Source: an uncultured Muribaculaceae bacterium (GTDB lineage Bacteria > Bacillota_I > Bacilli_A > RF39 > UBA660). From it: a stretch of DNA of 49,941 nt. The notes below the pieces were generated by a model that had not been told where the DNA came from, did no database searches, and was given only the letters and a program-made list of their open reading frames with translations. Positions within the stretch are counted from its first letter, which is position 1. Every line of letters begins with the position of its first letter. The DNA is taken from the NCBI GenBank assembly GCA_964494015.1, contig CAZBQC010000002.1, positions 1 through 49,941 on the forward strand, given 5' to 3'. Shown piece after piece: positions 22,443 through 47,593 of this stretch. The translations under genes were made by a program, and so were the position numbers.

Positions 22443-22451
22443 AGTGTTAAT

Positions 22452-23579: not shown

Positions 23580-23629
23580 TGGTAAAAGAGTAGAATCAAA
23601 AAATTAAATTATAAAAGGAGGTAATTTGA

Positions 23630-24103
23630 ATGGAATTAGTTCAAATTAAACAAAAAGATTTAGAAATATTAGAAAGGTTATTGCAGTTATATTTACACGA
23701 CATTAGTAAATATTTTCCAATAGAATTTGAGGAAAATACAGGGTTATATCTGTATGATGGTTTAGACAAATATTTTGATGGTTCAAAAAATTATGCTTAT
23801 TTTATAAAATTAGAAAAAAAAATAGCCGGCTTTATTTTGGTTGATTCTAATGAAAATGAAAAAATTATTCAAGAAATGTTTGTTTTAAATCATCATAAAA
23901 ACAAAGGTATTGGTAAATTAGCTGTTTGCAAAGTGTTAGAGAATAGTAAAGGTAATTGGATTATAAAGTCCTTACCGAATTCTGAACCTGCTGAAAGATT
24001 TTGGGATAGAACAATAAAAGAATATACTAATAATAGTTATCATGTTGAACATGTTGGTAGATATAATAGAGCTGTTTTTACTTTTAATAATAGTGATAAA
24101 TAA
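23630..24103 (+). CDS. GNAT-family N-acetyltransferase
   Basis: 157 aa. Acetyl-CoA-binding region QEMFVLNHHKNKGIGKLAV and C-terminal AERFWDRTIKEY. Strong RBS AAGGAGG. Confidence 0.7.
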   Translation: MELVQIKQKDLEILERLLQLYLHDISKYFPIEFEENTGLYLYDGLDKYFDGSKNYAYFIKLEKKIAGFILVDSNENEKIIQEMFVLNHHKNKGIGKLAVCKVLENSKGNWIIKSLPNSEPAERFWDRTIKEYTNNSYHVEHVGRYNRAVFTFNNSDK

Positions 24104-24104
24104 T

Positions 24105-25295
24105 ATGGAAGTATATTTAAGAAGAAAGAGTGAGGAATTAGAGTTTTTGTCTGGTTTTATAGATAATGAATTTCAGCATGCTCGTTTGATTGCACCAGCC
24201 AATGTTATATCAGTAAAAGAGCAAATAACTAAAGAGATTAGAAATAAAAACAGTATAAAATACTATCATGAATTAACAAATAAAACTAAAATTGGATTCA
24301 ATGATATATTTGAATACAACTATACATATGAACGATTTAATGGTTTTATAAAAATTCCATATTTTGCGAATGATTTTTATCATATAGAAAAAAATGTTAT
24401 CACAGAAACTTATTTTTCTAATTGTGGTATGAGTTCCATAGTTTCGCTTTTATCATCAATAATTTCCGCAAATGATTGTAGTGTGGACTTAATGTATGAG
24501 GAAACTTACTTTGAAACAATAAAGTTTCTTAGTTCGATAATAAAAGTAAAAAATCAAGATTTTTTTCTTTATATTGATTCAATAGCAAGTAATTTTAGCT
24601 TTCTTGATGATTTTAATTCTGATAATTATCTTGGAGTAATTATTGATACAACTTGTTTTGTTGGTGAAGATTATAAAAAAATGATAAACTATATAATATC
24701 GACAGGAACACCATGTGTTTTAGTACGTAGTCATACTAAAATAGATTTACTTGCAACAGAATACTCACATATTGGATCCGTTTCATTTATTTATCCGAAA
24801 ATTGAAAATAATAAAACAAAGAGAGTAAAAAAAGTTGAAACTGATTGTAAACATTTAATAGGTGTTTTTGGAGCTTGTTTACCTCCAGAAAAGTTTCCAA
24901 CTTTTATATTAAATAATAAAATAAAAACATTAAATAATAACAGAATAAAAATTGTTAATGAAAACAATAGTTTATTCTTTTCTATTTTGAAAGATTATAA
25001 AATTAATGTGATTTTACCGAATCATAGGCAATTCTGCTTGATATATTTAAAAACCATTTCAGGTACATTAGAGGATTTAAAACAGAAAATATATAATTTT
25101 TGCAAAGAAAATGAGAAGGAATTTCTAACTTACTCAGCTGTAAGTTTTGGTTTTGATTATATTTCCATTGACTGTTATCAAAATTTTGTGGATTCAACAT
25201 TTAAAATTAGGGTATGTATAAATGATTTTCCAAAATTAGTTATAGAAAGCTTCGCTTACAAATTTATTGAATTTTTAAAAATAATTGATGACTAA
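24105..25295 (+). CDS. Hypothetical protein; possibly a divergent fold-type I PLP enzyme (Cys/Met-metabolism family-like)
   Basis: ATG 1 nt after the GNAT stop. The order of FSNCGMSSIVSLL, YEETY, VIIDTTCF and VLVRSHTKIDL parallels the SSGmaAi / Y.gT / vDnTfatP / hSaTKyl motifs of cystathionine synthase/lyase-type enzymes. Weak similarity judged by eye only. Confidence 0.35.
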   Translation: MEVYLRRKSEELEFLSGFIDNEFQHARLIAPANVISVKEQITKEIRNKNSIKYYHELTNKTKIGFNDIFEYNYTYERFNGFIKIPYFANDFYHIEKNVITETYFSNCGMSSIVSLLSSIISANDCSVDLMYEETYFETIKFLSSIIKVKNQDFFLYIDSIASNFSFLDDFNSDNYLGVIIDTTCFVGEDYKKMINYIISTGTPCVLVRSHTKIDLLATEYSHIGSVSFIYPKIENNKTKRVKKVETDCKHLIGVFGACLPPEKFPTFILNNKIKTLNNNRIKIVNENNSLFFSILKDYKINVILPNHRQFCLIYLKTISGTLEDLKQKIYNFCKENEKEFLTYSAVSFGFDYISIDCYQNFVDSTFKIRVCINDFPKLVIESFAYKFIEFLKIIDD

Positions 25296-28444: not shown

Positions 28445-28729
28445 ATGAATAAAAGAAAACTATGGAGTAAAAAAGAAAAAATTAGAGTTGTTAGAAAAGT
28501 GTTAAGTACGAATAAATCCCTATCGACAATTGCTAAAGAAGAATCTCTCGATGTGAAAATTATTATTAGATGGGTAAGAAAGTATAATAATGAAGGAGAA
28601 AATGGTCTATCATCAAATAGGAATAAGACTTTAGCTAAGAGGACCACTCAAGAAAAAACACTAGGTTGGGAGCTGGAAAATATATTATCAAAAAAAGTTT
28701 ATTGGCTGAAAGAGGGTGTTCAAATTTAA
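28445..28729 (+). CDS. IS3-family transposase OrfA (HTH)
   Basis: WSKKEKIRVVRKVLSTNKSLSTIAKEESLDVKIIIRWVRKY is a typical IS3 OrfA helix-turn-helix. Confidence 0.8.
   Translation: MNKRKLWSKKEKIRVVRKVLSTNKSLSTIAKEESLDVKIIIRWVRKYNNEGENGLSSNRNKTLAKRTTQEKTLGWELENILSKKVYWLKEGVQI
28690..28697 (+). other. Programmed -1 ribosomal frameshift heptamer A AAA AAA (G)
   Basis: In the orfA frame the codons read TCA AAA AAA GTT. A -1 slip gives ...KKSLLAERGCSNLKV, which is the orfB frame. Confidence 0.7.
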
Positions 28730-29619
28730 AAGTTGCTTCCTCTCTTAAATTAAAGTATGCCATTATTCATCAACTTAGGAAGAATTATTCTATTAAATTT
28801 TTGTGTGATCGTTTAGATATCAATCGTAGCAGTTATTATAAGTGGTTAAAAAGCGATTGTGGTCACAGGCAAAGAAAAAAAAGAGAGAAATTAATTAAAC
28901 TTATCAACGTTATTCATGAAAACTATCCAACTTACGGATATCGAAGAATTGGATTTTTAGTTAGAAAAAGATTTAATGTTTCTGATCAATACATATATAA
29001 ATGTTGTTCATACTTAGGAATAAAGTCAAAAGTTAAAAGAAATAAGTCGAGAAATAAACCTTTAGGCATCAATAAGTATGATAATCTTGTCAATAATAAG
29101 TGGAATACTTTAAGGCCTTTAGAAATAGTAATATCTGATACCACTACTATTAATCATTGCACAGGCGAGTACAATTTAACTTTATATATTGATGCATTCA
29201 ATAATGAGATTATTAGCTATGATCTAACTGAGAAGGGACATGAAGAACTTTCTTCTCATCTTAAAGCTTTGACTAGATTTATTAAGATAAAAAAGAGTCG
29301 AGGTTACTTTAATATTAGAACGATTCTTCATACTGATCAAGGAGCAATATATGCTTCTGATGTTTTTAATGCTATTTGCAAGAACAATAATATTATTCAC
29401 AGTATGTCGAGGTTGGGTAAACCGACTGACAATGCCAAAATAGAGGCGATTAACGGTTGGATTAAACAAGAAATGGAAACAGACTTCCATTTTTTTTATG
29501 TACAAAATATTGCTCAGTTCATTAAAAAATATGTTAACTACTACAATACTGAGCGACCATCCTATAAGTTAGGTAATAAGACACCTCTTGGGTATAGGCT
29601 TGATTGTCATTTTAAATAA
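28696..29619 (+). CDS. IS3-family transposase OrfB part (DDE/rve integrase core), expressed as an OrfAB fusion
   Basis: YGYRRI, VISDTT (D), LHTDQGAIYAS (D) and GKPTDNAKIEAINGWIKQE (E). Confidence 0.8.
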   Translation, partial: SLLAERGCSNLKVASSLKLKYAIIHQLRKNYSIKFLCDRLDINRSSYYKWLKSDCGHRQRKKREKLIKLINVIHENYPTYGYRRIGFLVRKRFNVSDQYIYKCCSYLGIKSKVKRNKSRNKPLGINKYDNLVNNKWNTLRPLEIVISDTTTINHCTGEYNLTLYIDAFNNEIISYDLTEKGHEELSSHLKALTRFIKIKKSRGYFNIRTILHTDQGAIYASDVFNAICKNNNIIHSMSRLGKPTDNAKIEAINGWIKQEMETDFHFFYVQNIAQFIKKYVNYYNTERPSYKLGNKTPLGYRLDCHFK

Positions 29620-33086: not shown

Positions 33087-33620
33087 ATGTATGAATTAAA
33101 AGATTTTGAATTAGAAGGAAAAATGAATGATGCGTATCATTATTTGACACTAAATTTATCCGAAACAGGGCACAATAGCAAACCTGTTTTAATGCATAGT
33201 ATTGCTGTTTCGATGACATTATATCATTTGGGATATAATGAAGAAATTGTAATTTCGTCTATATTACATGATGTAATTGAAGATACTGATGTTTGTTATG
33301 AGGATGTAAAATCAAAATTTGGAGAGAATATTGCTGATATTGTTAATGCAGTTAGCTTTAATCCGGATATAGAAGATAAAATATTACAAACCAAAGAAGT
33401 ATATAAAAGAATTGGTAACCAGGGATATCAGGCTTTAATTGTAAAGTGTTCTGATTTGTTTTGTAATTTACCATTCATAGAATGTGTTAAAAAAGAAGAG
33501 ACATTAAGGTATTTAAAAACGAAATATAAATTATTTATTGAAATGTTTGGTGAAGAATTAAGCAAGGAAAAAATATATAATTTGTTTGTTGAAAGGTATA
33601 AAAGTTTGATTAATGATTAA
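33087..33620 (+). CDS. HD-domain (p)ppGpp-hydrolase-like protein (RelA/SpoT hydrolase-domain family, stand-alone)
   Basis: HSIAVSMTLYHLG and ILHDVIEDTD are the signature of the RelA/SpoT-type HD hydrolase domain. 177 aa. Confidence 0.65.
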   Translation: MYELKDFELEGKMNDAYHYLTLNLSETGHNSKPVLMHSIAVSMTLYHLGYNEEIVISSILHDVIEDTDVCYEDVKSKFGENIADIVNAVSFNPDIEDKILQTKEVYKRIGNQGYQALIVKCSDLFCNLPFIECVKKEETLRYLKTKYKLFIEMFGEELSKEKIYNLFVERYKSLIND

Positions 33621-33681: not shown

Positions 33682-33761
33682 GATAAAAAAGTTAGTTTTT
33701 TTTTCGCATCAATTGTAGCATTCCGTTTTTTATTTAATAAAGATTAAAAAATTGTTGACAA
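33682..33761 (+). repeat. Duplicated intergenic block, copy A (left flank of operon 2)
   Basis: GATAAAAAAGTTAGTT plus a T-run ... TATTTAATAAAGAT ... AAAAAATTGTTGACAA. The same ordered blocks occur at 41747-41857. Confidence 0.55.
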
Positions 33762-33783
33762 TTAATGAATTATTTGTTATTGT
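33755..33783 (+). promoter_or_regulatory. Putative promoter of operon 2
   Basis: TTGACA at 33755-33760, a 17-nt spacer, and extended -10 TGtTATTGT with the hexamer at 33778-33783. A ~160-nt leader follows. Confidence 0.5.
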
Positions 33784-33946
33784 AACCATTGTATTTGGGA
33801 ATGTATCCCCAAGGTTATTTTATTGTTGCGGTATTTAATTAATTTGGGGGACTGATTTTCGGATTCTCAATTTTTATTATAAAAAGCGGAGATTATGAAA
33901 TAAAAATTATAAGATAATTTATGTGTAGCAGTCCATGGAGGATTTT

Positions 33947-36043
33947 ATGGAAGAAGATAAGATAACTGTTGTTGTACCTATGTATAATAGTGAAAAATAT
34001 ATAGAACGTTGTCTAAAATCCATATGCAATCAATCGTATCAAAATCTAGAAATTATTGTAATAGATGATGGAAGTACAGATAATAGTAAATTTATTGTTG
34101 AAAAGCTACAAGAAAGTGATTCAAGAATCAATTACTTTTACCAAGAAAATAAAGGACCAGGTTTAGCTAGAAATGTTGGGATTGAAAACGGAATAGGCAA
34201 ATATATTTCTTTTATTGATAGTGATGATGAAATAAGAAAAACATTTATTGAAGTTCTTTACAAAACTATAAGAAAAGACGACAGTTTTTCCTTAACTGGT
34301 GGATATATGATTTATCAAGATGGATCAACCGAAAAATCATTTTTAACAACAAAAACAGAAACTAAGAACTTTAAAGTTCCTATCTGTTGTAATAAACTAT
34401 TTAATTTTGAATTAATTCGAAAAAATAACTTAAGATTTCAGGGACTATATTATGCAGAGGATATAGATTTTTGGGGAAGAATTTTAATGATTAATGATAA
34501 TTTTTCGATTGCAAATGACTATTTATATTTATGCTATTTTAGAGAAGATTCTTTGACTAGAAGTTACACAGATAAAAGTATAATTTATCAAATATTCTAT
34601 GTAGTAGATAACATAGAAAAACTTGCAAAAGAAAATGAAAAGTTCGATCAGTATAAAGATAGCTTAGAATTTTTAAATATAAAAGAAATTTTTATAAGGG
34701 CAATGAAACAAATTAGTCAAATGCCTAGTTTCAGTGACTATGACATAATTAAAATGCTTGAATATGTCGAGGCAAAATATCCTAATTGGTATTATAATAA
34801 ATATATCAGATCTTCCTTTGATAAATATAGAAAGAAAAGATTGGAATTGTTATTTAAAAAAGATTTTGCCGGTTTAATTAGTTATCTTAGACAATTAAAT
34901 TCAGGATATGTAGTTCAATCTGATGAAGAGATTTTAGCACAAAATATTATTAATCATTCCATTGCTGTTGAAAAAGGACAAGCAGTTCAAATTAGGTATA
35001 AAAGCACGAAGTGTAATCCGTTAGTTATACAATTAATTAGAGAAATTCAAGAAAAAGGAGCAATTGCTATTACTAGATTTCAGGATGCAGAATTAGAAAG
35101 GGTTACAAAAGAAACATATGACATTTATGCAATGACTAAGTTGGCCGGGATAATTACAAGAGAATCTGAATTTTATGATTCATTTATATCAATTGGATAT
35201 AGTGAAAATGATTATGATTCATCAAAAAGTAATGAAAACCCAGCTAGTAGAATACTTATTAGTAATCTTACGGATTATAATAAAATTGTTCGTAATAAAA
35301 AGGGGATAGTACTTTCTTATCCTTCTCCTTTAGATGCGCATAAGTCAAAAATGACTACAGAGGAATATAAGAGATATGCTTTTTCTATTTTAAATTATGA
35401 TTACAAGTCACTTAAGTCAAAAATGGTACCATTACAGAAATTAATAGAGAAAACGAAAAAAGTTTCTATATTAGGTAAAGATACAGAGTTAAGTTTTCTT
35501 ATTGAAAATATAGGTGGAATTATCATGGCGGGAGAAGTTAATATTCCGGATGGAGAAGTATATACTGCTCCAATTAGAAATAGTGTCAATGGAATAGTAA
35601 AGTTTAATGTCCATAGCAAATACATGGGAAATGTTTACGAAAATGTGATATTAGAATTTAAAAATGGAAAGATTATTGATTTTAATTGTAACAATCCAAA
35701 TGATTTTAAAGGTATCATAGATATTGACGAGGGTAGTAGGTATATTGGAGAATTTGCTTTAGGAGTTCATCCGTTAATACTTCATCCTATATTAAGTACT
35801 CTTCATGATGAAAAAATATATGGCAGTTTTCATTTGGCATTAGGGCAGTCTTATAGGAATGCTTATAATGGAAACGATTCCAATATACATTGGGATTTAA
35901 TTGATATTCAGAGAAATGATTATAATCCAGGTAAAATATATTTTGATGAAGAATTAGTAAGAGAAAATGGAGAATTTATTTTGGATGATTTAAAACCATT
36001 AAATGACAAAAGAGCTTATACATTAACTACAAGGAGAAGATAA
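33947..36043 (+). CDS. Bifunctional fusion: N-terminal family-2 glycosyltransferase plus C-terminal M29 aminopeptidase domain
   Basis: GT2: ITVVVPMYNSEKYIERCL, IIVIDDGSTDNS and FIDSDD. M29: VNIPDGEVYTAP, GEFALGVHP, FHLALGQS and IHWDLI. Start preferred at the ATG at 33947 (GGAGG 5 nt upstream); the track start is 33935. Confidence 0.75.
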   Translation: MEEDKITVVVPMYNSEKYIERCLKSICNQSYQNLEIIVIDDGSTDNSKFIVEKLQESDSRINYFYQENKGPGLARNVGIENGIGKYISFIDSDDEIRKTFIEVLYKTIRKDDSFSLTGGYMIYQDGSTEKSFLTTKTETKNFKVPICCNKLFNFELIRKNNLRFQGLYYAEDIDFWGRILMINDNFSIANDYLYLCYFREDSLTRSYTDKSIIYQIFYVVDNIEKLAKENEKFDQYKDSLEFLNIKEIFIRAMKQISQMPSFSDYDIIKMLEYVEAKYPNWYYNKYIRSSFDKYRKKRLELLFKKDFAGLISYLRQLNSGYVVQSDEEILAQNIINHSIAVEKGQAVQIRYKSTKCNPLVIQLIREIQEKGAIAITRFQDAELERVTKETYDIYAMTKLAGIITRESEFYDSFISIGYSENDYDSSKSNENPASRILISNLTDYNKIVRNKKGIVLSYPSPLDAHKSKMTTEEYKRYAFSILNYDYKSLKSKMVPLQKLIEKTKKVSILGKDTELSFLIENIGGIIMAGEVNIPDGEVYTAPIRNSVNGIVKFNVHSKYMGNVYENVILEFKNGKIIDFNCNNPNDFKGIIDIDEGSRYIGEFALGVHPLILHPILSTLHDEKIYGSFHLALGQSYRNAYNGNDSNIHWDLIDIQRNDYNPGKIYFDEELVRENGEFILDDLKPLNDKRAYTLTTRRR

Positions 36044-36044: not shown

Positions 36045-37166
36045 ATGACAAAAGTGCCGTCGCTGATTGTTTTAAATCTTACATCTGATTGTAATTTACG
36101 ATGTAAATATTGTTATGCTTCTGCCGGTAATTGCAAAGATTATATGACTTCAAGGTGTGCTATTGAAATAGTTACACAAGTTTCAAAATATAATGATTCT
36201 ATTGAACTACTATTTCATGGTGGCGAACCACTAATGAACTTTGAAGTTATTAAGAATGTAATAAATTTTTGCAAAAATAAATTAAAAGAAAAAGAAATAA
36301 GTTATTATATTCAAACTAATTCATTGCTTCTTACAAAAGAAAAAGCAGAATATCTAATCAATGAAAATGTTGAAATATGTCTTAGTATGGATGGTAATAC
36401 TGAAATAAGTAATAGTGGCAGGGTCGACTCTAAAGGGAATTCGAGTTTAAATATTATTAAAAGCAGAATAGAGTTATTGAAATCATTAGACTATAATACT
36501 ACCATTTTGGCAGTTCTAAATAAGAAAAATGTAGGAAAAATTGAATCATTTATAGACTATCTTGTGGAAAATAAAATTTATAATTTTTCATTAAACTATT
36601 TTATTAAAGGTGGTCGTGGTAATAATAATAAGAATCTAGCGCTAAATCCGAAAGCACTATATAATGCAACAGTAAAAACTATTAATAAAGTTTTAGAATA
36701 TCGTCGGAAAAATGTTAAAATAATAGAGAGAAATGTTTTACATTTATTAAGAAATGTTATAACCAAAAGTAAAGGTTATATGTGTATGAATAGTCCATGC
36801 GGGGCTGGTAATCATCTTTTAGGGTTCACACCGAATGGGGATATTTATCCTTGCGATGATTTAAGTTCAGTAGAACAATTTAAAATCGGAAATATTTTTG
36901 ATGGTGATTTAATGAATACCCTAGAAAATAATAGTATTGTAAATTTCTTTAACTATTGTTCTTATGATAATATTCCAAAATGTTGTTGCTGTGATTTTAA
37001 AGATCGTTGTGGAGCTGGTTGTGCATCTAGAAAATTTTATGAAAAAGGCACAATATATGAAGTTGATCCAATTTGTGAATTTTATAAAATGATAATACCA
37101 TATATAGAAAATAGAATAAAAAATGAACCGTTAATAAAGGAATTGATTGATGAACATGAAAAATGA
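36045..37166 (+). CDS. Radical SAM/SPASM enzyme (anSME-like), no N-terminal extension
   Basis: SDCNLRCKYCY, FHGGEPL and YMCMNSPCGAGNHLLGFTPNGDIYPCDD, then CCCCDFKDRCGAGCASR and PICEF. Confidence 0.8.
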   Translation: MTKVPSLIVLNLTSDCNLRCKYCYASAGNCKDYMTSRCAIEIVTQVSKYNDSIELLFHGGEPLMNFEVIKNVINFCKNKLKEKEISYYIQTNSLLLTKEKAEYLINENVEICLSMDGNTEISNSGRVDSKGNSSLNIIKSRIELLKSLDYNTTILAVLNKKNVGKIESFIDYLVENKIYNFSLNYFIKGGRGNNNKNLALNPKALYNATVKTINKVLEYRRKNVKIIERNVLHLLRNVITKSKGYMCMNSPCGAGNHLLGFTPNGDIYPCDDLSSVEQFKIGNIFDGDLMNTLENNSIVNFFNYCSYDNIPKCCCCDFKDRCGAGCASRKFYEKGTIYEVDPICEFYKMIIPYIENRIKNEPLIKELIDEHEK

Positions 37167-37845
37167 TATTTTAGGGAAAAAAATAGACAGAAACCAATTA
37201 GATATTATAAATAAAATAATGAAAGTAAAAAATAAAATTCTTTTTTTAAAATCCATCCCTCAAACAGGGAAAACAGCAGTTCTAAAAAGATTATTTGACA
37301 TCAATAATGATAAAATAAAAATGTTTATTACTGGATGTAATCCAAAAAACATGAAGTTTATTGACGATAGTGTTTTATTTGAAATAAACTCATGTATTAA
37401 TAAAAATAGGAATGAAAATATATCAATTTTTTTTGATGAATACTATAATTGTAAAATTTTGGATTATTTTAAACATAATAAATTAGATAATGTAAGTGTA
37501 TATATTAGTACTAATAAAATAAGTAAAGAAATTAGTTATGATGTTGAAATAATAGATATATACGAAGATGTATTTAGAGGTTTAGATAAATTCATGTTTT
37601 CAAAATATTCGGTTGATATCTCTACAAAAGTTCGTAAAAGAAGTATTTCAATAATGGAACTTATGGAAATTGTCAAAATTCTTCAAAATAAAAAGTATTT
37701 AAATTATTCTGTTGATAAATTACTTTTATTCCTTCAAAATAAGCTAAAAAGTAAAAAAATTAAAAGATTTTTACCGACGACTACGGCAATACTTTATATA
37801 AATAAAGATTATCAAATGTTAAAAACATTTGAGTTCAAAGAATAG
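37147..37845 (+). CDS. Hypothetical protein with P-loop NTPase-like Walker A/B motifs
   Basis: SIPQTGKTAVLKRL (Walker-A-like) and ISIFFDEYY (Walker-B-like). Overlaps the previous gene by ~20 nt. Start at TTG 37147 or ATG 37150/37156. Confidence 0.35.
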   Translation: MMNMKNDILGKKIDRNQLDIINKIMKVKNKILFLKSIPQTGKTAVLKRLFDINNDKIKMFITGCNPKNMKFIDDSVLFEINSCINKNRNENISIFFDEYYNCKILDYFKHNKLDNVSVYISTNKISKEISYDVEIIDIYEDVFRGLDKFMFSKYSVDISTKVRKRSISIMELMEIVKILQNKKYLNYSVDKLLLFLQNKLKSKKIKRFLPTTTAILYINKDYQMLKTFEFKE

Positions 37846-37857: not shown

Positions 37858-39165
37858 ATGAGCTTATCATTAGTAACTAAACCAAATTTGAATATTCTTA
37901 TAAATAAGAATAGTGGCAAATGGATAGCATTTAAAAATAATGAAGAAATAAAAAGTGAGATTATAGAAATAACCAATAAACAACAACTAATGCGAAAGTA
38001 TGGTGAAAAATTCGCAAATCTACTTTGGAATAAAAGAGTTGAGATGGCTAAGAAATCCAAAAATAAGTTATGTTATAATATGAATTGCCTAGTAATAAAT
38101 GTGACTAATAATTGTAACTTAAAATGTGAATATTGTTATGTAAATAAATATGATAACAGACATTTTATAGAGAGCGACACTATAATTAAATCAGTAAAAA
38201 TGTTTGCCTCAAATATTTATCCAAATAAATTGACAGTAATTTTTCATGGAGGTGAGCCATTATTAGCTTTTGATAAAATTAAAGAGGCTGTTATTAAATT
38301 AATTAATGTAAATAATGTTGTATATTCTCTCCAAACCAATGGAACATTACTTGATTCAGACAAATTAGATTTTTTTAAGAAGCATAAATTTTTAATTGGA
38401 TTAAGCATTGATGGTATAAATGACGAAAATAATTCGTTAAGAAATGTAGATGGTAAAATGAGAGATTATACCCTAAATAATTTGAAAATTTTAAGCCAAA
38501 ATAAAGATTTTGTAAAGCCTCTTCTTGTGATTCATAGGAAAAATATCAATAGTATAAAAGAAATAGTTGATTATTTTAAAAATAATGGATTTGATGGTTT
38601 AGTATGTAATTTATTATTTGAAAGTAATGATTTTAAAAATTGCGTATTAGATGATTCATTATTTGAAAATATGAAATACACTTTGGATGTTATGATGGAA
38701 AATTTTGACGGTGAAAACTTCTCCTTTTCCGAACGTGACATAAGGTTATTATTTAGAAAGGTGGTATTTGGTTTTTTAGATGAATACATGTGCATGAATA
38801 GCCCATGTGGAGCAGGCAAAGAAACAATTGCGATTGATTATAATGGGAATGTATGGGGATGTAATGTATTAATATCAAAAAACAAAGATCAAAATTATAT
38901 GGGGAATGTATTTAATAATTCTGTTGAAGAAATATTAAATAAAAAAATTTCAATTTCTAAACGTAATATTAAAAATATAGTTAAGTGTATGTCTTGTCCC
39001 TATAAAGTATTATGTGGTGGTGGAGGATGTTGCGGATTCATATCTCATCAAAACAATAAACTTCTGGATAATAGTATATATTGCAACTATCATTTTAAAC
39101 TAATTACTTATATAATAGAGAGTGTCATGAAATATAACAAAACTGATATTTTGGTTAATTTTTAA
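37858..39165 (+). CDS. Radical SAM/SPASM enzyme with a ~85-aa N-terminal (RRE-like) extension; paralog of 36045-37166
   Basis: NNCNLKCEYCY, FHGGEPL and YMCMNSPCGAGKETIAIDYNGNVWGCN, then CMSCPYKVLCGGGGCCGF and IYCNY. Confidence 0.8.
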   Translation: MSLSLVTKPNLNILINKNSGKWIAFKNNEEIKSEIIEITNKQQLMRKYGEKFANLLWNKRVEMAKKSKNKLCYNMNCLVINVTNNCNLKCEYCYVNKYDNRHFIESDTIIKSVKMFASNIYPNKLTVIFHGGEPLLAFDKIKEAVIKLINVNNVVYSLQTNGTLLDSDKLDFFKKHKFLIGLSIDGINDENNSLRNVDGKMRDYTLNNLKILSQNKDFVKPLLVIHRKNINSIKEIVDYFKNNGFDGLVCNLLFESNDFKNCVLDDSLFENMKYTLDVMMENFDGENFSFSERDIRLLFRKVVFGFLDEYMCMNSPCGAGKETIAIDYNGNVWGCNVLISKNKDQNYMGNVFNNSVEEILNKKISISKRNIKNIVKCMSCPYKVLCGGGGCCGFISHQNNKLLDNSIYCNYHFKLITYIIESVMKYNKTDILVNF

Positions 39166-39178: not shown

Positions 39179-39307
39179 ATGAAAAATAAGGATAAAAACT
39201 TTGATGCAATTATGAAAAAGCTATTAAACAATAAGAAAGTAAAAATTAAAGTTCCTACTTACAATAGTAAGGTAATGATGGCTCATTGGAGCAACGGATA
39301 TAATTAA
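39179..39307 (+). CDS. Unannotated 42-aa Cys-free small ORF; candidate RiPP precursor (MKNKDKNFDAIMKKLLNNKKVKIKVPTYNSKVMMAHWSNGYN)
   Basis: Strong RBS AAAGGAGGTG 5 nt upstream of the ATG at 39179, which lies 13 nt after the rSAM stop. TAA at 39305-39307, followed by a terminator. The C-terminus is rich in aromatic and polar residues (Y28, H36, W37, Y41) and has no Cys. Confidence 0.65.
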   Translation: MKNKDKNFDAIMKKLLNNKKVKIKVPTYNSKVMMAHWSNGYN

Positions 39308-39561: not shown

Positions 39562-41178
39562 ATGAAAAATGTTTATTATTGTTCACACAATAAAGAAATT
39601 ATTAATAATAAGATATTAATTAAACCTAATGCTGGTTTGTATTATACATTAGACAATTATGTTTTATGTTTATTATATTCTGTAAGTTTTGATGTAGATT
39701 ATTACATACAAATAGTATTTGTTGGTAAAAAATTAATTATAGTGGAAAGATTTAAAAATGCTATTAAGCAAGCTTATAGTGATAAAAGTGTTTACATATA
39801 TACAGCTAAAGGCCCCTTTTTTCGACATAAAAAGAAAGAGAATTATTATATAAAAAGAAAATTAATGGTAAATAATGTAAGTTATATAAAAAATATTTAT
39901 GATGAAATAACTGATAAGGCCAAAAACAATGAATTAGATATAATAAAATATAAACAAAGTACAAAAAAAGATATAGATATCCTTAATAAAAAGTTTCTTG
40001 AGAAAATTTTAAATATGAATTCAAAAACAAAAATCAATGAATGTTCATTGTTTTTTCCTCATATTAAAAAGAATACTAATCATAAAATACTAAAAGGAGT
40101 GGAAAAATATAGAAATAATGATATAAATAATCCTCATTATTTGTTCCATGGATCTTGTAGTTTAGTAAAGGGTTATATAAACCCAAATCAAGCTTATTGT
40201 AGTACTCTTAGTGTAGAGAACAATGAATGTGCTGTATACTCAGTAGCAGATCCAAAATATACTATACCATATTTATTTAAATTAAAAAAAGGGAAATTTT
40301 ATAATTTTAAAAACAGGAAGCATGAGTATGCAAGCCATTTTAAAACAGATTTATATTTTGGATTAGAAAATACAATAATCAAACAAGGCAGTATAAGCAT
40401 GAATGCAGTTGGCTATATATATGTTTTCTTGTCGAACAACTTTTTTCGAAATTCATCTGTGCAATGGATTTCTAAAGAAAAATGTAAGCCAATTGATATT
40501 GTAAAAATAAGTTATAAAGATGTACAAGAAAACTTTATTTATGTAAAGGAATGTTTAATTGAGAACTTATATAAAAAAATTGAAAAAAAGAGAGGCTTTT
40601 TGGAAGCTGAATTTAATAAAATCAAAAAACAGTGGTTTGATAATTTAATTGATAACCATGATAGAAAACATATGGAAAGAGTATGTCTATTATCGGTATA
40701 CATTGCAACTTTGATGAATATAGATGATAACGATATTATTTTATTAATTAAGGTGGCTTTATATCATGATATAGGCCGAATTAATGAATTTAGGGAAGAA
40801 AAACACGGGATCAGAGGTGCTAAGCTCCTTCATAGTATCCTAACTAATTATTTACCTGAACCAGTAGGTAATATTAATATAAATGAAATTCAATTTTTAG
40901 TTTCAAGCCATTGTGTTAACGAAAATAAATATAGTTCTTTTTTTCGTAAATATAAATGTTCAAAAATTAGACACGATAGCTTATTGATTTTGTTAAAAAT
41001 TCTAAAAACTGCTGACATACTTGACATGTGCAGATATAAAAAATTTAACTCAATTTTTAAGATTTTAAATTTTAGTGAAATTGAAAGTGCTAGATTAATT
41101 TATATTGCAGAAGATTTATATAAATATTATAATAATTATATTAGTGATAGAAAGGAGTATTTTAAAAATCAAAAATGA
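39562..41178 (+). CDS. Large hypothetical protein with a C-terminal HD-domain phosphohydrolase module
   Basis: The HD module contains HMERV and VALYHDIGRINE...KHGIRGAKLL. The middle region has YLFHGS ... AVYSVADPKYTIPY, a possible ADP-ribosyltransferase-like H-Y pattern (see findings). Confidence 0.5.
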   Translation: MKNVYYCSHNKEIINNKILIKPNAGLYYTLDNYVLCLLYSVSFDVDYYIQIVFVGKKLIIVERFKNAIKQAYSDKSVYIYTAKGPFFRHKKKENYYIKRKLMVNNVSYIKNIYDEITDKAKNNELDIIKYKQSTKKDIDILNKKFLEKILNMNSKTKINECSLFFPHIKKNTNHKILKGVEKYRNNDINNPHYLFHGSCSLVKGYINPNQAYCSTLSVENNECAVYSVADPKYTIPYLFKLKKGKFYNFKNRKHEYASHFKTDLYFGLENTIIKQGSISMNAVGYIYVFLSNNFFRNSSVQWISKEKCKPIDIVKISYKDVQENFIYVKECLIENLYKKIEKKRGFLEAEFNKIKKQWFDNLIDNHDRKHMERVCLLSVYIATLMNIDDNDIILLIKVALYHDIGRINEFREEKHGIRGAKLLHSILTNYLPEPVGNININEIQFLVSSHCVNENKYSSFFRKYKCSKIRHDSLLILLKILKTADILDMCRYKKFNSIFKILNFSEIESARLIYIAEDLYKYYNNYISDRKEYFKNQK

Positions 41179-41732
41179 AACAAGAAAAATTATATAATAA
41201 AATTAAGTTCGAGACCGAAAGATTAATAATTAGGCGTATAAAAAAGTCTGATTGGAATGATTTTTTTCAATTAATGAGTGATGAAAAAACCATGAATTTT
41301 CTAGGTAGAGTTATAACAAAAGATGAAGCAAAAGGTTATGTTATAAATCAAAGTAATATTAGTTACGAAAATTATAGTGGTTGTTATGCTGTGGTATTAA
41401 AATCCGAAAATAAAGTAATTGGACAGTTTGGTCTAGACATAAATGAGAAACATTCTAAGGCTTCTATAAGTTATTTATTTAATAGTAACTATTGGAATAA
41501 AGGTTATGCTATTGAAACGGTTAAATTTATGGTGGATTTTGCTTTTAATGAAATAAAATTAAATAGAATCGAAGCCGATTGCGTGGAAGAAAATGATTCA
41601 TCATTAAAGATATTCAATAAATTAGGAATGAAGTACGAAGGAAAATTTAGGGAGGCTCGTTTTAATAAAAAATATAATAAATATTTTAATGTTGTTTATT
41701 ATGCAGTATTAAGAAAAGATTATAAATCATAA
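41175..41732 (+). CDS. GNAT N-acetyltransferase of the RimJ/RimL (Acetyltransf_3) type
   Basis: ERLIIRRIKKSDWNDFFQL, NKGYAIETVKFMVDFAFNEIKLNRIEADCVEENDSSLKIFNKLGMKYEG. The ATG overlaps the preceding TGA (ATGA). Confidence 0.7.
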   Translation: MKQEKLYNKIKFETERLIIRRIKKSDWNDFFQLMSDEKTMNFLGRVITKDEAKGYVINQSNISYENYSGCYAVVLKSENKVIGQFGLDINEKHSKASISYLFNSNYWNKGYAIETVKFMVDFAFNEIKLNRIEADCVEENDSSLKIFNKLGMKYEGKFREARFNKKYNKYFNVVYYAVLRKDYKS

Positions 41733-42049: not shown

Positions 42050-42361
42050 ATGTCAAACGGAAAGGTTCGCATCAGACTAAAGGCCTACGATCATAGAATA
42101 CTTGACAATGCAACTAGTCGTATCGTCGAAACTGTCAAAAGATCAGGTGGTGTCATAAGTGGTCCAATACCGCTACCAACTGAAATTGACAAGTACACAG
42201 TTTTAAGATCTCCTCACAAGTACAAAGATGCTCGTGAGCAGTTTGAAATGCGTACACATAAGAGATTAATTGATATTAAGAACCCAAGTAAGGAAATTAT
42301 AGATGCTTTAACACATTTAGACTTACCTAGTGGTGTAGATATCGAAGTAAAAACAAATTAA
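42050..42361 (+). CDS. rpsJ: 30S ribosomal protein S10
   Basis: [14 protein letters not shown]...ISGPIPLPT...[27 protein letters not shown]. Confidence 0.97.
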
Positions 42362-42386
42362 TTAATAATATTAGGAGGATTAAATT

Positions 42387-43211
42387 ATGAAAGGAATCTT
42401 AGGAAAAAAGATTGGAATGACTCAAGTATTTACTACTAAAGGTAAATTGATTCCGGTCACAGTCGTCGAAGTTGAACCAAATATCGTAACACAAGTTAAA
42501 ACTAACGAAAAAGATGGTTACGAAGCTATTCAACTTGGAGCAGTCACTGTCAAGGCTAAATCAAGCAATAAAGCTAAAATGGGTCATACTAACAAAGCAA
42601 ATACAGAACCTAAGCGCTTCTTAAAAGAAATTAGGGGATTAAAATCAAGCAACTATACTTTAGGGCAAATCATCGATGTAACTTTATTTGAACCAGGAGA
42701 AGTAGTTGATGTCACTGGAATCAGTAAAGGTAAAGGATTCCAAGGTGTTATTAAGAGATATAATCAAACTAGAGGTCCAATGGGACATGGTTCACAATAT
42801 CATCGTGGAGTTGGTTCACTTGGAACCAGATTACCAATGCATGTTATTAAAGGTAAGAAGATGCCCGGACACATGGGTAGCGAATTAACTACCATCCAAA
42901 ACTTGGAAGTAGTCAGTATCGATATCGAAAAGAATGTTATTTTAATTAAAGGTAATGTTCCTGGTCCAAAAAATTCTTTAGTTATAATTAAGAGTGCAGT
43001 TAAAGGTAATGGTAAGAAGAATAAATTAGAAGAACTTATTAGTTACGAGGAGATAGTTCCGGAAGAAGAGAATATTGTCGGTTCTGAAGAGACAGTCGTC
43101 GAAGAAGAAAACGTCGTCGATTCTGAAGAGGTGGCAGTAGAAGAAAATGCTACAACTGAGGAAATCGAGAGCGAAACTACTCAAACTGAAGAAGTAACTG
43201 AAGAAAAATAA
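42387..43211 (+). CDS. rplC: 50S ribosomal protein L3 with a ~60-aa acidic C-terminal extension
   Basis: [15 protein letters not shown]...[10 protein letters not shown]...[15 protein letters not shown], then a Glu-rich tail built from a 39-nt tandem repeat. Confidence 0.95.
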
Positions 43212-43253
43212 TCATCACAAACTATTAACTAGTGATGAGAGGAGGAAAAGTAG

Positions 43254-43877
43254 ATGAAAAAGATAAAACTTTTAAATAATAAAGGTGAAAAAATTAAAGA
43301 TATTAATTTAAATGAAGAAATATTTGCTATTGAACCAAATGATAAAGTTTTATATGATGCGATTATTTTAAGTCGTGCATCCTTAAGACAAGGAACTCAT
43401 AAAACTAAGACTCGTGCCGAAGTTTCTGGTGGTGGTAGAAAACCATGGAAACAAAAAGGGACAGGTCATGCTAGACAAGGTTCAATTAGAGCTGTTCAAT
43501 GGAAAGGTGGAGGCGTTTACGCAGGACCAGTTCCAAGGGACTACAGCAAAAAAATGAATCGTAAAGAACGTCGCTTAGCACTAAAGACAGCTTTAACATA
43601 TATTGCTAAGGAAGATATGGTAGCAGTAGAAAAGTTAGATTTTGCTACTCCAAAAACCAAAGAGTTAATCAGTTTTCTAGAAAACTTAAAAATAGCTGAT
43701 AAAAAGGTTTTAGTTGTGGCTCAAGAACTAAGCGAAAACTTGATTTTAGCATCTCGTAATTTACCAAATATTATGATTATGGAAGCTAATGAAATCAATA
43801 CTTTGGACTTAGTGACAGCCGATAAGTTGATTATCGAGGAAGCAGCTATTAAGACCTTAGAGGAGGTGCTAAAGTAA
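43254..43877 (+). CDS. rplD: 50S ribosomal protein L4
   Basis: RQGTHKTKTRAEVSGGGRKPWKQKGTGHARQGSIRAVQWKGGG. Confidence 0.95.
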   Translation: MKKIKLLNNKGEKIKDINLNEEIFAIEPNDKVLYDAIILSRASLRQGTHKTKTRAEVSGGGRKPWKQKGTGHARQGSIRAVQWKGGGVYAGPVPRDYSKKMNRKERRLALKTALTYIAKEDMVAVEKLDFATPKTKELISFLENLKIADKKVLVVAQELSENLILASRNLPNIMIMEANEINTLDLVTADKLIIEEAAIKTLEEVLK

Positions 43878-44158
43878 TGGATACTAAATATTTAGAAATT
43901 ATTAAGGGTCCAGTCGTTACTGAAAAAAGTGGCTTGGCAGCGAATCAAAATAAATATAGTTTTAAAGTTGATCCTAGAAGTACTAAGTTAGAGATCAAGA
44001 ATGCTATTGAAAAAATATTTAAGGTGAAAGTTGAGAGGATAAGTACTCTTATTGTGAAACCTAAGAAAAAGAAAGTTGGTCGTTATACTGGGCTATCTAA
44101 TCGCATCAAGAAAGCAATTGTTACTTTAAAAGATGGTCAAAAGATCGATCTAAACTAG
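43877..44158 (+). CDS. rplW: 50S ribosomal protein L23
   Basis: IIKGPVVTEKS...YSFKVDPRSTKLEIKNAIEKIFKVKV. Confidence 0.95.
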   Translation: MDTKYLEIIKGPVVTEKSGLAANQNKYSFKVDPRSTKLEIKNAIEKIFKVKVERISTLIVKPKKKKVGRYTGLSNRIKKAIVTLKDGQKIDLN

Positions 44159-44173
44159 GAAGGTGGTATAAAG

Positions 44174-45001
44174 ATGGCAATTATTAATTTTAAACCGACA
44201 ACTAATGCTAGACGTAAGATGAGTAAATTAGTTAATGAAGAACTAACTAAAAAAGCACCGGAAAAGAGCCTAGTTGTTCGTAAGGTTAAAAATGGTGGAC
44301 GTAATAATCAAGGTAAAATTACGGTTAGACATCAAGGTGGAGGCGCCAAAAGAAAATATCGTCTTGTCGATTTTAAACGTGATAAGGCTGATATTGAAGG
44401 AGTCGTTGCTGCTGTTGAGTACGATCCAAACCGTAGTGCTAATATTGCTTTAATCAATTATGTCGATGGTGAAAAAAGATATATTTTGGCACCAAAAGGT
44501 CTTAAAGTAAAAGACAAAATCATAAGTGGTGAAAAAGTTGACATTAAAGTAGGTAATGCTTTACCGATCATGAATATTCCAGTTGGTGCAGTCATTCATA
44601 ATATTGAACTTCGTCCTAAAAAGGGTGGGGAGCTAGCAAGAAGTGCTGGTGCCTCGGCTCAAATTTTAGGTCGAGAAGATACCTATGTTATGGTACGACT
44701 AAGTAGTGGAGAACAAAGAAAAATTCTAGGTACCTGTTATGCTACGATCGGTGAAGTTGGCAATGAAGACCATGAGTTAATAAAGCTTGGTAAAGCAGGA
44801 AGAACTCGTCACATGGGAATTCGTCCAACTGTTCGTGGTTCAGCTATGAACCCTAACGATCACCCACATGGTGGTGGTGAGGGTAAAGCACCAATCGGTC
44901 GTAAAGGACCAGTTACTCCTTGGGGTAAACCAGCCCTTGGATATAAGACAAGAAAGAATAAGGCTAGCAATAAATTTATTGTTCGCCATCGTTCAAAATA
45001 A
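44174..45001 (+). CDS. rplB: 50S ribosomal protein L2
   Basis: [16 protein letters not shown]...RSAGASAQI...[14 protein letters not shown]. Confidence 0.97.
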
Positions 45002-45019
45002 AGAAAGGATAGGTAGAAT

Positions 45020-45313
45020 ATGGCAAGAAGCTTAAAAAAAGGACCTTATGTCTTTGATAGACTATTAACTAAGGTCAAAAATTTAAACAAGTCTGGGAAA
45101 AAAGAAGTTATTAAAACTTGGTCTCGTCGTTCGACAATATATCCTGACTTTATTGGACACACGTTTGCAGTACATAACGGAAAAGAATTTATTCCGGTTT
45201 ATGTTACTGAGGATATGGTAGGACATAAATTAGGAGAATTCTCCTTAACCCGTAAATTTACTGGTCATGGTGAAGAAAAGAAAACAACGACAACAACACC
45301 TAAAGCTAACTAG
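45020..45313 (+). CDS. rpsS: 30S ribosomal protein S19
   Basis: [11 protein letters not shown]...[25 protein letters not shown]...GHKLGEF. Confidence 0.97.
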
Positions 45314-45327
45314 GAGGAAAAAGATAT

Positions 45328-45660
45328 ATGGAATCATATGCAATTGCTAAATCAGTAAGAGTATCACCCATTAAAAGTCGACTAGTAATTGACTTAATTC
45401 GTGGTAAGAATATTGATGAAGCGCTAAATATATTAAATAATTATCGTAATAAGCCTTCACGATTAATTAAAAAGGTTTTAGATTCAGCTATTGCTAATGC
45501 CGTTAACAATAATAAAGCTGATCGTAATAAACTATATGTCAGTGAAGCAAGAATCGATGCTGGTCCAGTCATGAAACGTGGCCTATTTGATTCAAGAGGT
45601 CATACGGGACATAACGACAAGAGAACTAGTCATATTGTCGTAAAAGTGGCTAGTAGGTAG
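45328..45660 (+). CDS. rplV: 50S ribosomal protein L22
   Basis: AIAKSVRVSPIKSRLVIDLIRGK...ALNIL...SAIANA. Confidence 0.95.
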   Translation: MESYAIAKSVRVSPIKSRLVIDLIRGKNIDEALNILNNYRNKPSRLIKKVLDSAIANAVNNNKADRNKLYVSEARIDAGPVMKRGLFDSRGHTGHNDKRTSHIVVKVASR

Positions 45661-45669
45661 GAGGATAAT

Positions 45670-46344
45670 ATGGGTCAAAAGGTTAGTCCAGTCGGATTTA
45701 GAATTGGTATTAATAAAGACTGGGAATCAAAATGGTATGCGCCTACTAAAGATTTTTCTAAATATTTAAACAATGATATTAAAATTCGTGCTTATTTAGA
45801 AAAGAATTTAGGGGATGCCGGTATTTCTAAAATTGAAATTGAAAGAAATAAAAGAAGAACAGAAGTAATTATCCACACTGTCAAGCCAGGAATTATTATT
45901 GGACGTGGTGGAGAAGAAATTGAAAAATTGAAGAAGATTTTATCAAAATTAGTTGATGAGAGCGTTCAAGTATCAGTTGTTGACCTTAAAAATGCTGATA
46001 TTAATGCTAAAATAGTGGCTGATTCGATTGCTAAGCAAATTGAGAATCGTGCATCTTTTAGAATGGCTCAAAAACGAGCTATTAGAAATGCCATGAAAGC
46101 TGGAGCTAAGGGAATTAAGACTCTAGTTTCAGGACGCTTAGGTGGCGTAGAAATGGCAAGACGTGAAGGTTATACTGAAGGAACTATTCCACTTCATACG
46201 ATTAGAGCTGATGTCGATTATGCAACAAGTGTTGCCAATACAACTTTTGGTAAGATCGGCGTTAAAATATGGATTTATAAAGGTGAAATACTTCCAGTGA
46301 AAAAAGGAGGTAAGGACAATGGCAATTATACCAGCAAGAGTTAA
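45670..46344 (+). CDS. rpsC: 30S ribosomal protein S3
   Basis: [24 protein letters not shown]...[12 protein letters not shown]. Confidence 0.97.
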
Positions 46345-46753
46345 ATTCCGTCGCGTACATCGCTTACCTTATGAAGGAAGAGCTAAAGGAAATAGAGAAT
46401 TATACTTTGGCGACTTTGGTTTAGTGGCTAAAGAAGGAGCTTGGATTTCAAGTAACCAAATCGAAGCAGCACGTGTTGCGATGACTAGGTACATGAAACG
46501 TGGTGGAAAAGTATGGATCAATATTTTCCCTCATATGCCAAGAACTAAGAAACCACTTGAAACTCGTCAAGGAAAAGGTAAAGGTAATGTCGAGGAATGG
46601 GTTGCAGTCGTTAAAGAAGGCAAAATCTTATTTGAAATTGCTGGAATTGATGAAGCAACAGCTAGAGAAGCTTTAAGACTAGCATCTCATAAGTTATCGA
46701 TTCAAACAAAATTTATAAAAAAAGAAAATGGTGGTGAACGAAATGAAGGTTAA
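46319..46753 (+). CDS. rplP: 50S ribosomal protein L16
   Basis: [34 protein letters not shown] upstream. Overlaps the rpsC 3' end. Confidence 0.93.
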
Positions 46754-46952
46754 TGAGATAAGAAAACTAACCACTGCCGAAATTACTAAAAAAGTTAAGG
46801 AAGGTAAAGAAGAATTATTCAATTTACGTTTCCAACAAGCAACAGGTAATTTAGAGAAACCTTCAAGAATGAGAGAGTTAAGACACGAAGTAGCAAGACT
46901 AAAGACAGTTCTAAAGGAACGTGAACTAGCTGAGGAGGTTAACAATGGATAA
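46743..46952 (+). CDS. rpmC: 50S ribosomal protein L29
   Basis: [14 protein letters not shown]...[15 protein letters not shown]. Start set at the internal ATG at 46743 rather than the track start at 46728. Confidence 0.9.
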
Positions 46953-47202
46953 AACTAAAAAAGAGTTAATTGGTAAAGTCGTAAGTGCTAAAAATAGTAA
47001 GACTATTACCGTTTTAGTTGAAACTTACAAGACTGATCGCCTATATGGTAAAAGAGTTAAATATTCTAAGAAATATGCTGTTCATGATGAAAGCAATAAA
47101 GCTAAAGTTGGGGACACCGTTAGAATTATCGAAACGAAACCAATCTCAAAGACTAAATATTTTTATTTAAAAGAAATAGTAAAGAAAGCAGTTATTTTAT
47201 AA
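46945..47202 (+). CDS. rpsQ: 30S ribosomal protein S17
   Basis: [19 protein letters not shown]...[16 protein letters not shown]...[16 protein letters not shown]. Confidence 0.95.
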
Positions 47203-47224
47203 CTCTAAAAAGGAGGAAAAAGAG

Positions 47225-47593
47225 ATGATAGGGCAAGAGACTGAATTAAAGGTTGCCGATAACTCTGGAGCACGTGAAGTATTAGTTATTCGTGTTAAGG
47301 GTGGTAGCAACAGAAAATTTGGTAATATTGGCGATACAGTCGTATGTACTGTTAAAAGTGCAATCCCAAATGGGACTGTTGCTAAAGGCAAAGTTGTCAA
47401 AGCTGTTATAGTAAGAAGTACTTTTGGAGTTAGAAGAAAAGACGGAAGTTACATTAAATTCGATGATAATGCATGTGTCATTATTAAAGATGATAAAAGT
47501 CCAGTGGGAACCAGAATTTTCGGACCAGTGGCACGTGAACTTCGCGGAAAAGATTTCATGAAAATTGTTTCTTTAGCTAAAGAAGTACTATAG
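47225..47593 (+). CDS. rplN: 50S ribosomal protein L14
   Basis: [24 protein letters not shown]...FDDNACVII...[12 protein letters not shown]. Confidence 0.97.

Follow-up and report, generated by a model that had tools for sequence, protein, structure and literature searches.

Aminopeptidases of family M29 are otherwise known as housekeeping enzymes, and their sole link so far to peptides that are made on ribosomes and modified after translation (RiPPs) is a pair of diverged, non-peptidolytic proteins, CgnB and CgnE. Glycosylation is rare in RiPPs; glycocin glycosyltransferases of the SunS/ThuS type are GT2 enzymes that glycosylate a ribosomal peptide and recognise their substrate through an additional C-terminal domain. 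A 2023 review of RiPP leader proteases names metalloproteases of families M1, M16, M17, M50, M61 and M103, and M29 is not among them (PMC10885120). Here we describe a gene in which a GT2 glycosyltransferase and an M29 module form a single polypeptide. It lies on the forward strand of a 49,941-nucleotide stretch (hereafter the window; positions 1 to 49,941 of contig CAZBQC010000002.1, assembly GCA_964494015.1) from an uncultured Muribaculaceae bacterium (GTDB lineage Bacillota_I; Bacilli_A; RF39; UBA660), beside genes for two radical S-adenosylmethionine (rSAM) enzymes and a small precursor peptide. We give a probability of about 0.55 to the reading that the fusion is a cytoplasmic bifunctional tailoring enzyme of an rSAM RiPP pathway that glycosylates the precursor core and trims the leader; that it is a RiPP tailoring enzyme of some kind is highly probable.

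The fusion is encoded by one open frame. The segment 33935..36043 (+) holds 702 codons without interruption, and 698 aa is the best gene model because a GGAGG Shine–Dalgarno motif with a 5-nt spacer precedes the ATG at 33947 and the orthologues begin at the same start (MEQEK). Three wastewater metagenome runs contain the exact gene and manure runs contain part of it (Logan contigs); contigs of four runs from two studies (three wastewater, one manure) span the GT/M29 junction (~nt 34900) with neither a mismatch nor a gap. Orthologues that are 72% identical and also 698 aa long occur on one Logan contig (L001) and in four metagenome-assembled genomes (MAGs; L002–L005). The frame is intact in L001–L004, i.e. 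4/5 loci, and L005 carries a frameshift 32 codons before the stop, within the M29 module and away from the junction. Three lineages are thereby represented (i.e. the window, L004, and the near-identical L001, L002, L003 and L005). A comparison of L001 with L004, for which dS (0.3–0.8) has not reached saturation, gives ratios of nonsynonymous to synonymous substitution rates (dN/dS) of 0.07 in the GT-A core, 0.09 in aa 146–230, 0.07 in the helical region, and 0.10 and 0.095 in the two M29 domains, so both halves of the fusion are under strong purifying selection. Agreement at the junction in four runs of two studies and the four intact orthologous loci rule out an assembly artefact or a hidden frameshift, and the low dN/dS throughout, together with the retention of all catalytic residues, rules out a decaying or pseudo-domain. 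The single uninterrupted frame that a first-pass annotation had read from the letters is thus borne out: a frameshift or stop splitting it into two genes was looked for in the metagenome contigs and the orthologues and was not found. The fusion is real with near certainty.

The N-terminal module is a GT2 glycosyltransferase. It matches Glycos_transf_2 (PF00535) in Pfam (E 3.7e-36, 125 bits against a cut-off of 23.3); the motifs named by the first-pass annotation stand in the order it gave (VVVPMYN at aa 8–14, IIVIDDGSTDNS at 36–47 and FIDSDD at 89–94), and D41, D93–D94 and E171–D172 are kept in 23–32 of 32 aligned GT2 sequences. The module had first been put at ~230 aa; instead, homology and predicted helices carry it to ~aa 320, so that there is essentially no free linker, and GT2 protein P0086 is homologous as far as ~aa 377 of the fusion. 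In an AlphaFold2 model of the whole fusion (mean pLDDT 84, pTM 0.62), the GT-A core is very confident (aa 1–115; core pLDDT >95) and the acceptor/helical region to ~aa 320 less so. PDB sequence matches range from E 7e-31 (GalT1, 5hea) to 1e-14; neither the sequence matches at E ≤ 1e-5 nor the 50 best fold matches include SunS/ThuS-type enzymes. No NCBIfam equivalog (TuaG, PglI, PgaC and others) was reached, the top match scoring 106 bits against a cut-off of 423.

The assignment of the last ~370 aa to M29 also holds, by Pfam match, by fold and by extent (aa ~325–698). Peptidase_M29 (PF02073) is matched with E 6.3e-34 and 117.9 bits (cut-off 27) over profile positions 6–387 of 406, and the family motifs follow in order (PDGEVY at 534–539, GEFALG at 601–606, HLALG at 629–633 and IHWDL at 647–651), as they do in a stand-alone M29 of another operon in the window (operon 1; 22452..23579), which has PDGEVF, GEFAIG, HLALG and IHWDM. 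The AlphaFold2 model shows the M29 two-domain fold with pLDDT >90 over aa 325–698; Foldseek comparison with AmpS, PepS and AmpT gives TM scores of 0.64–0.72 over 406–424 columns, and the M29 family profile spans AmpS residues 8–360. The residue set EEHYHD is complete: E537, E602, H629, Y636, H648 and D650 correspond to AmpS E253, E319, H348, Y355, H381 and D383, four of them aligned residue by residue and the H-x-D pair placed by its invariant motif, while E622 is the counterpart of a metal ligand of CgnB. The alignment to AmpS therefore finds every metal ligand kept, and the loss of ligands that would have spoken against the first-pass annotation did not appear. EEHYHD and E622 are unchanged in both fusion lineages compared and in the aligned stand-alone relatives, the Tyr position of the operon-1 M29 apart. 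In LmAmpII, single mutants of the equivalents of each EEHYHD residue are inactive (PMC7023490). Judged by the intact motif, the module is apparently an active aminopeptidase, and presumably a dimer, as in other M29 enzymes.

The nearest relatives of the M29 module are stand-alone "aminopeptidases" of 365–375 aa (41–48% identity) from Bacillota/Bacilli MAGs, and the three contexts inspected are all housekeeping (i.e. recA/rny/lon, ruvAB/queA/ftsW and the cotJ region). Just upstream of each housekeeping M29 gene examined (L006–L011) lies a small divergent open reading frame (ORF; 63–87 aa, without Pfam match). In a neighbour-joining tree, the M29 sequences of the fusion, of operon 1 and of a related cluster (L013) occupy separate long branches; they share 31–36% identity with one another versus 40–45% with the housekeeping enzymes, and a separate comparison puts the operon-1 M29 at 37% identity to the fusion module. 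A dedicated RiPP-specific M29 clade is not supported, each of the three being nearer to the housekeeping clade than to the other two. Their separate long branches suggest that M29 enzymes were recruited independently and repeatedly by RiPP clusters and evolved faster thereafter.

The architecture is very rare and, in scans covering billions of proteins, turned up in a single small clade. Among the GT2-anchored matches listed, PF02073 occurs only in the window protein and in P0002. A HMMER search of 1.84 billion representatives with the linker plus M29 module gave 2783 matches, and among the 150 listed the linker/GT module recurs only in P0002; no GT2 domain occurs among the best 120 M29-anchored matches. 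The fusion was not seen outside the rSAM cassette among the matches listed, and more distant GT2 + M29 combinations may lie beyond these sequence scans. Another protein, P0233 (764 aa), joins an N-terminal Acyl_transf_3 membrane acyltransferase to a C-terminal M29 module, so that M29 is coupled here, too, to an enzyme of the type that modifies carbohydrates or the cell surface. The first-pass annotation knew of no characterised GT2 + M29 pairing, and our literature search on M29 in RiPPs and on glycosylated or heptosylated rSAM RiPPs likewise gave no description of such a system.

We then compared the cassette in which the fusion is embedded. In all three lineages the gene order is the fusion, an rSAM/SPASM enzyme (~370 aa), a P-loop-like protein (~230 aa), a second rSAM/SPASM enzyme (435 aa) and an ORF of 40–42 aa; the gaps are short or overlapping, and the flanks differ between lineages. 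Maturases beside a short ORF with a variable leader and a conserved core are what defines an rSAM/SPASM RiPP cluster, and all of these are found here. The leader half of the ORF diverges, while its core VPTY[N/D]SKVMMAHWSNGYN is near-invariant, with all core nucleotide changes but one synonymous; the ribosome-binding site (AAAGGAGGTGA) is invariant, and conservation collapses at the stop codon. The invariant ribosome-binding site, the synonymous drift of the core and the end of conservation at the stop identify the ORF as a genuine precursor gene.

Both maturases score below the cut-offs of all NCBIfam models compared (HxsB, PapB, DynA, CbpB, DarE and the cyclophane-forming GrrM/YhhB/AmcB); HxsB, with a cut-off of 370, gives the best scores (164 and 150 bits), and PapB, DynA, CbpB and the cyclophane-forming maturases are also among the best matches. 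The ~75-aa N-terminal extension of maturase 2 is possibly a leader-recognition domain. The P-loop-like protein, which has a Walker A-like QTGKT and an hhhhDE motif, is cassette-specific, and a metagenome scan with it gave no matches. Ahead of the fusion, TTGACAA and the downstream promoter box are also kept in L002 and L004, and the leader hairpins show one compensatory pair among the three sequences (window, L002 and L004). The second hairpin, followed by a U-run, is terminator- or attenuator-like, and its sequence suggests attenuation control of the cassette; an Rfam scan of the window found tRNA only, with no match in the operon leader. A second promoter-like site follows the precursor gene. 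The GNAT gene downstream is 74% identical at the protein level to one upstream of the L004 cassette and 32% identical to those of L013 and L015, and a GNAT also occurs in L020; it thus travels with the cassette family and presumably has a role there. Two HD-domain genes (33087..33620 and 39562..41178) were set aside as parts of the system, being absent from the L002, L004 and L005 cassettes. The window cassette is without an exporter.

The cassettes of L001, L002, L003 and L005 are 99–100% alike at the protein level and mostly lie on short contigs; MAGs with this cassette type are labelled Clostridiaceae, Muribaculaceae or Bacilli. Near-identical cassettes in differently labelled MAGs point to mis-binning or cassette mobility. 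In L005, an insertion sequence (IS) transposase lies between the GNAT gene and the fusion.

Related clusters were found via relatives of the 435-aa rSAM enzyme. Identity of the diverged clusters to the window is 48–58% for maturase 1 (L012, L013 and L015), 31–40% for maturase 2 and 23–31% for the P-loop protein, homologues of which occur in L012, L013 (AAA_14), L015 and L019; the GNAT is orthologous as well. Their precursors share the core motif [VL]-P-x-[YF]-[ND]-x4-M-x-H-W-[ST]-[ND], and all core copies open with [VL]-P (Table 1). The L013, L015 and L020 precursors consist of tandem LPxYD...MMHWS[ND]TS cores with almost no leader. The slot held by the fusion is filled by a PepF-like M3 oligoendopeptidase in L012, by a transglutaminase-core protein in L015/L016 and by a DUF553-like homologue of the latter in L013, where a stand-alone M29 gene directly adjoins the cassette P-loop gene. 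Separate genes for a GT9 heptosyltransferase-like protein, HldE and GmhA occur in L013, L015 and L020, with a GmhB-like phosphatase in L013 and L015. Because of the GT9 and ADP-heptose pathway genes, the products of these three clusters are predicted to be heptosylated. The slot peptidases and the separate GT9 genes make a peptidase plus a glycosyltransferase a recurrent accessory pair of the closer sub-family. A merger of orthologous neighbours was considered for the origin of the fusion and rejected, as no split GT2/M29 versions were found and the relatives use GT9. Going by sequence, the fusion would instead join two accessory functions of the sub-family through non-orthologous representatives (GT2 for GT9).

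Table 1. Features of the fusion cassette in the window, and precursor cores of the related clusters L013, L015, L020 and L019.
Feature	Positions	Strand	Detail	Basis or remark
Promoter-like site	33755..33783	+	TTGACA, 17 nt, TG-n-TATTGT	Consensus match only
5' leader	33794..33877	+	Hairpins 33794-33813 and 33846-33869	Both kept in L002, L004
GT2-M29 fusion gene	33947..36043	+	698 aa	Alternative in-frame ATG at 33935
Glycosyltransferase module	33947..34906	+	aa 1 to ~320	GT-A core (aa 6-145) followed by an acceptor/helical region
GT motifs		+	D41 (34067); DxD D93-D94 (34223-34228); E171-D172 (34457-34462)	Motif conservation
Complete M29 module	34919..36040	+	aa ~325-698, N-terminal and catalytic domains	Pfam; AmpS/PepS/AmpT by sequence and fold
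M29 residues			E537 (35555), E602 (35750), E622 (35810), H629 (35831), Y636 (35852), H648 (35888), D650 (35894)	
rSAM/SPASM maturase 1	36045..37166	+	373 aa	Pfam
P-loop-like protein	37147..37845	+	232 aa from TTG; likely start ATG 37156	Weak AAA_14 match
rSAM/SPASM maturase 2	37858..39165	+	435 aa	Pfam
Precursor peptide gene	39179..39307	+	42 aa, MKNKDKNFDAIMKKLLNNKKVKIK-VPTYNSKVMMAHWSNGYN	Ribosome-binding site, conservation, orthologues L001-L005
Acetyltransf_3 (RimJ/RimL-type) GNAT	41175..41732	+		Pfam
L013 precursor, with its core	9326..9454		LPKYDENSIMMHWSDTS, two copies	
L015 precursor, with its core	5320..5490		LPKYDERAIMMHWSNTS, two copies	
L020 precursor, with its core	1504..1701		LP[DE]YDDSVIMMHWSNTS, three copies	
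L019 precursor core			VPNFDGTSLMSHWTNVD, one copy	

Relying on these comparisons, we propose the following pathway. The two rSAM/SPASM enzymes would cross-link the C-terminal core of the 42-aa precursor, and the GT-A/GT2 module, with its DxD and inverting-type ED motif, would transfer a sugar from a nucleotide sugar onto that core. The M29 module, as a metal-dependent exopeptidase, would strip the ~24-residue leader residue by residue from the N-terminus and halt at the conserved Val/Leu-Pro that opens the core, or on reaching the first residue that is modified. X-Pro bonds are not cut by most aminopeptidases of broad specificity, and since all cores open with [VL]-P, an X-Pro bond would be a natural trimming stop. 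Tyr4 of the core is a candidate sugar acceptor because L019, which lacks a glycosyltransferase, has Phe at this position (a single case); Ser/Thr14 is an equally conserved hydroxyl. Fusing the activities would fix their stoichiometry and let the peptide stay with a single protein through the two steps, and the hold of the M29 module on the free N-terminus may double as substrate docking, which otherwise has no counterpart in the GT2 module. Activity, acceptor residue, order of steps, X-Pro stop and dimerisation are all put forward here as proposed features of the enzyme. The coupling of glycosylation to N-terminal trimming had been proposed by the first-pass annotation; the conserved rSAM RiPP cassette, the precursor, the peptidases and glycosyltransferases of the relatives and the retained EEHYHD set support it by comparative genomics and stop short of proof. 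That the M29 module has catalytic activity and trims the leader is slightly more probable than not.

Several points weigh against the bifunctional reading: (i) the geometry between the two domains is uncertain in the AlphaFold2 model, as the pTM value indicates; (ii) the closest structural relatives of the glycosyltransferase module act on teichoic acids or glycans, not peptides; (iii) the relatives have GT9 and not GT2, which makes the fusion analogous to their separate genes and no merger of orthologues; (iv) the more distant clusters L017–L019 contain no recognisable glycosyltransferase or peptidase; and (v) characterised M29 enzymes have been assayed mostly on short substrates, which leaves the processive stripping of a 24-residue leader unproven. 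In addition, (vi) CgnB has the M29 fold and an intact dinuclear site, yet binds a RiPP and has no aminopeptidase activity (PMC10070186).

A rival explanation builds on this last point: the M29 module could be a non-catalytic or no longer peptidolytic docking domain, an alternative already raised by the first-pass annotation. It would grip the N-terminus or leader of the precursor and offer the core to the GT2 module, a substitute RiPP recognition element like CgnB and CgnE, with another host protease removing the leader. Both CgnB and CgnE have the M29 fold, bind the precursor and lack aminopeptidase activity, although CgnB keeps its dinuclear Zn site, and crocagin-like biosynthetic gene clusters all encode a glycosyltransferase, save the crocagin cluster itself (PMC10070186). 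No peptide-binding domain is recognisable within the GT2 module itself, and NicX (7cn3) illustrates that the fold can be repurposed. By contrast, the M29 module belongs to M29 proper by its Pfam score (118 bits) and has 41–48% identity to ordinary aminopeptidases, it keeps the N-terminal portion largely lost in CgnB/E, and all six EEHYHD residues are in place, Tyr included. CgnB and CgnE belong to no Pfam family and are not matched by the family profile even at E ≤ 10 (6zsv and 6zsu), which rules out membership of the module in the CgnB/E family. The occupation of the corresponding slot in related clusters by unrelated protease-type families argues for proteolysis as the conserved function of that slot. 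We consider pure docking a minority reading, with roughly one chance in five. Docking and trimming are compatible, as binding of the N-terminus could serve glycosylation and trimming alike.

A second possibility is that M29 trimming serves self-protection or the timing of activation, i.e. a glycosylated, leader-bearing pro-form would be inactive and glycosylation would gate trimming, or the GNAT would acetylate the new N-terminus as immunity. The Acetyltransf_3 GNAT that accompanies the cassette family and the missing exporter, unlike in L015, L019 and L020 with their ABC exporters, fit this idea; it is purely context-based, however, and a refinement of the bifunctional tailoring enzyme rather than a true alternative, and we hold it improbable. 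It is most improbable that the modules act on separate substrates (GT2 on an envelope polymer or small molecule, M29 as a general aminopeptidase) and that the fusion and its rSAM neighbourhood have no pathway meaning: the closest solved glycosyltransferase relatives do modify wall teichoic acids or glycans, the closest M29 relatives are housekeeping enzymes and another M29 fusion exists (P0233), but the five-gene order and tight spacing are kept in three lineages with differing flanks, the fusion is headed by a single promoter-like site and a conserved leader, a glycosyltransferase and a peptidase accompany the same rSAM genes in related clusters, and the matches listed place the fusion nowhere outside the cassette.

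Elsewhere, the window, which stems from a low-GC (~27%) organism of a wastewater community, contains a second, unrelated rSAM RiPP-like cluster, operon 1 (17411..25295). Its first ORF encodes a 35-aa Cys-rich peptide (17411..17518; ...GTKVCMAVGTCHCN), followed by genes for an rSAM/SPASM enzyme, a 292-aa protein, a second rSAM enzyme, a Tet(M)/EF-G-like ribosomal-protection GTPase, the stand-alone M29, a GNAT and a protein of 417 aa. Against tet_protect (cut-off 775) the GTPase reaches 527 bits; the presence of such a homologue suggests that the producer is protected from its own product, which would target the ribosome. In the operon-1 M29 the catalytic Tyr is replaced by His (HLALGNSH, compared with HLALGQSY; EEHHHD), apparently as the single non-Tyr sequence among 42 aligned; it may have altered or lost activity, because the equivalent Tyr mutation inactivates LmAmpII (PMC7023490). 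The two RiPP operons are separated by an IS element (rve integrase, 28666..29619). Just downstream of the fusion cassette begins the S10 operon of ribosomal proteins (L3, L2 and others; 42050..49636), and the window is therefore chromosomal.

If the bifunctional reading is true, a bona fide M29 whose catalytic motif is intact would add a leader-processing family to RiPP clusters, in which M29 occurs twice in the window and once in L013. A single polypeptide with both steps would offer a system for studying the order and coupling of tailoring, and the fusion could be a portable "glycosylate-and-release" module for engineering. The RiPP family of the window cassette and its relatives is apparently undescribed, and the locus gives entry to a family that includes multi-core precursors and, in relatives, products predicted to be heptosylated, in uncultured low-GC Bacillota of digesters, wastewater and gut. 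The fullest version of our proposal is tentative, with odds somewhat short of even: the fusion would be the first M29-family RiPP leader peptidase, joined to a peptide glycosyltransferase, docking the N-terminus and then trimming to X-Pro, in an undescribed family of glycosylated rSAM-cross-linked peptides that swaps proteases (M29, M3 and transglutaminase-core) and glycosyltransferases (GT2, and GT9 with ADP-heptose genes).

Compared with known systems, the glycosyltransferase module is nearest, by sequence and fold among solved structures, to GalT1/CgT (5hea), TarS (5tz8), TarP (6h1j) and RmlT (8bz7), which share its DxD and ED motifs and the helical region after the GT-A core; unlike the fusion, they use teichoic acids or protein-linked glycans as acceptors and have no peptidase domain. 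In SunS/ThuS-type enzymes, the C-terminal domain does not have the M29 fold and the peptides are not rSAM-modified. AplP-like M1, PttP1/P2 M16 and BotP M17 peptidases resemble the M29 module in metal-dependent N-terminal trimming of RiPPs and are sometimes encoded in the gene cluster, whereas they belong to other peptidase families and none is fused to a glycosyltransferase (PMC10885120). CgnB and CgnE (6zsv and 6zsu) likewise represent an M29 fold dedicated to a RiPP pathway, in clusters with glycosyltransferases; in contrast to the fusion, they have <25% identity to aminopeptidases and no Pfam match, have lost most N-terminal dimer-interface residues, carry no extra domains and come from Proteobacteria, Actinobacteria and Cyanobacteria, and the modifying enzyme of the crocagin pathway, CgnC (with Fe2+ supplied as assay cofactor), is not an rSAM enzyme (PMC10070186). 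AmpS (1zjc), PepS (4icq/4icr/4ics), AmpT (2ayi) and LmAmpII share PF02073, the two-domain fold and EEHYHD with matching spacing; they are ~410 aa long, whereas the module described here has ~370 aa, is fused C-terminally to GT2, stands apart from the housekeeping clade on a long branch and belongs to a RiPP cassette.

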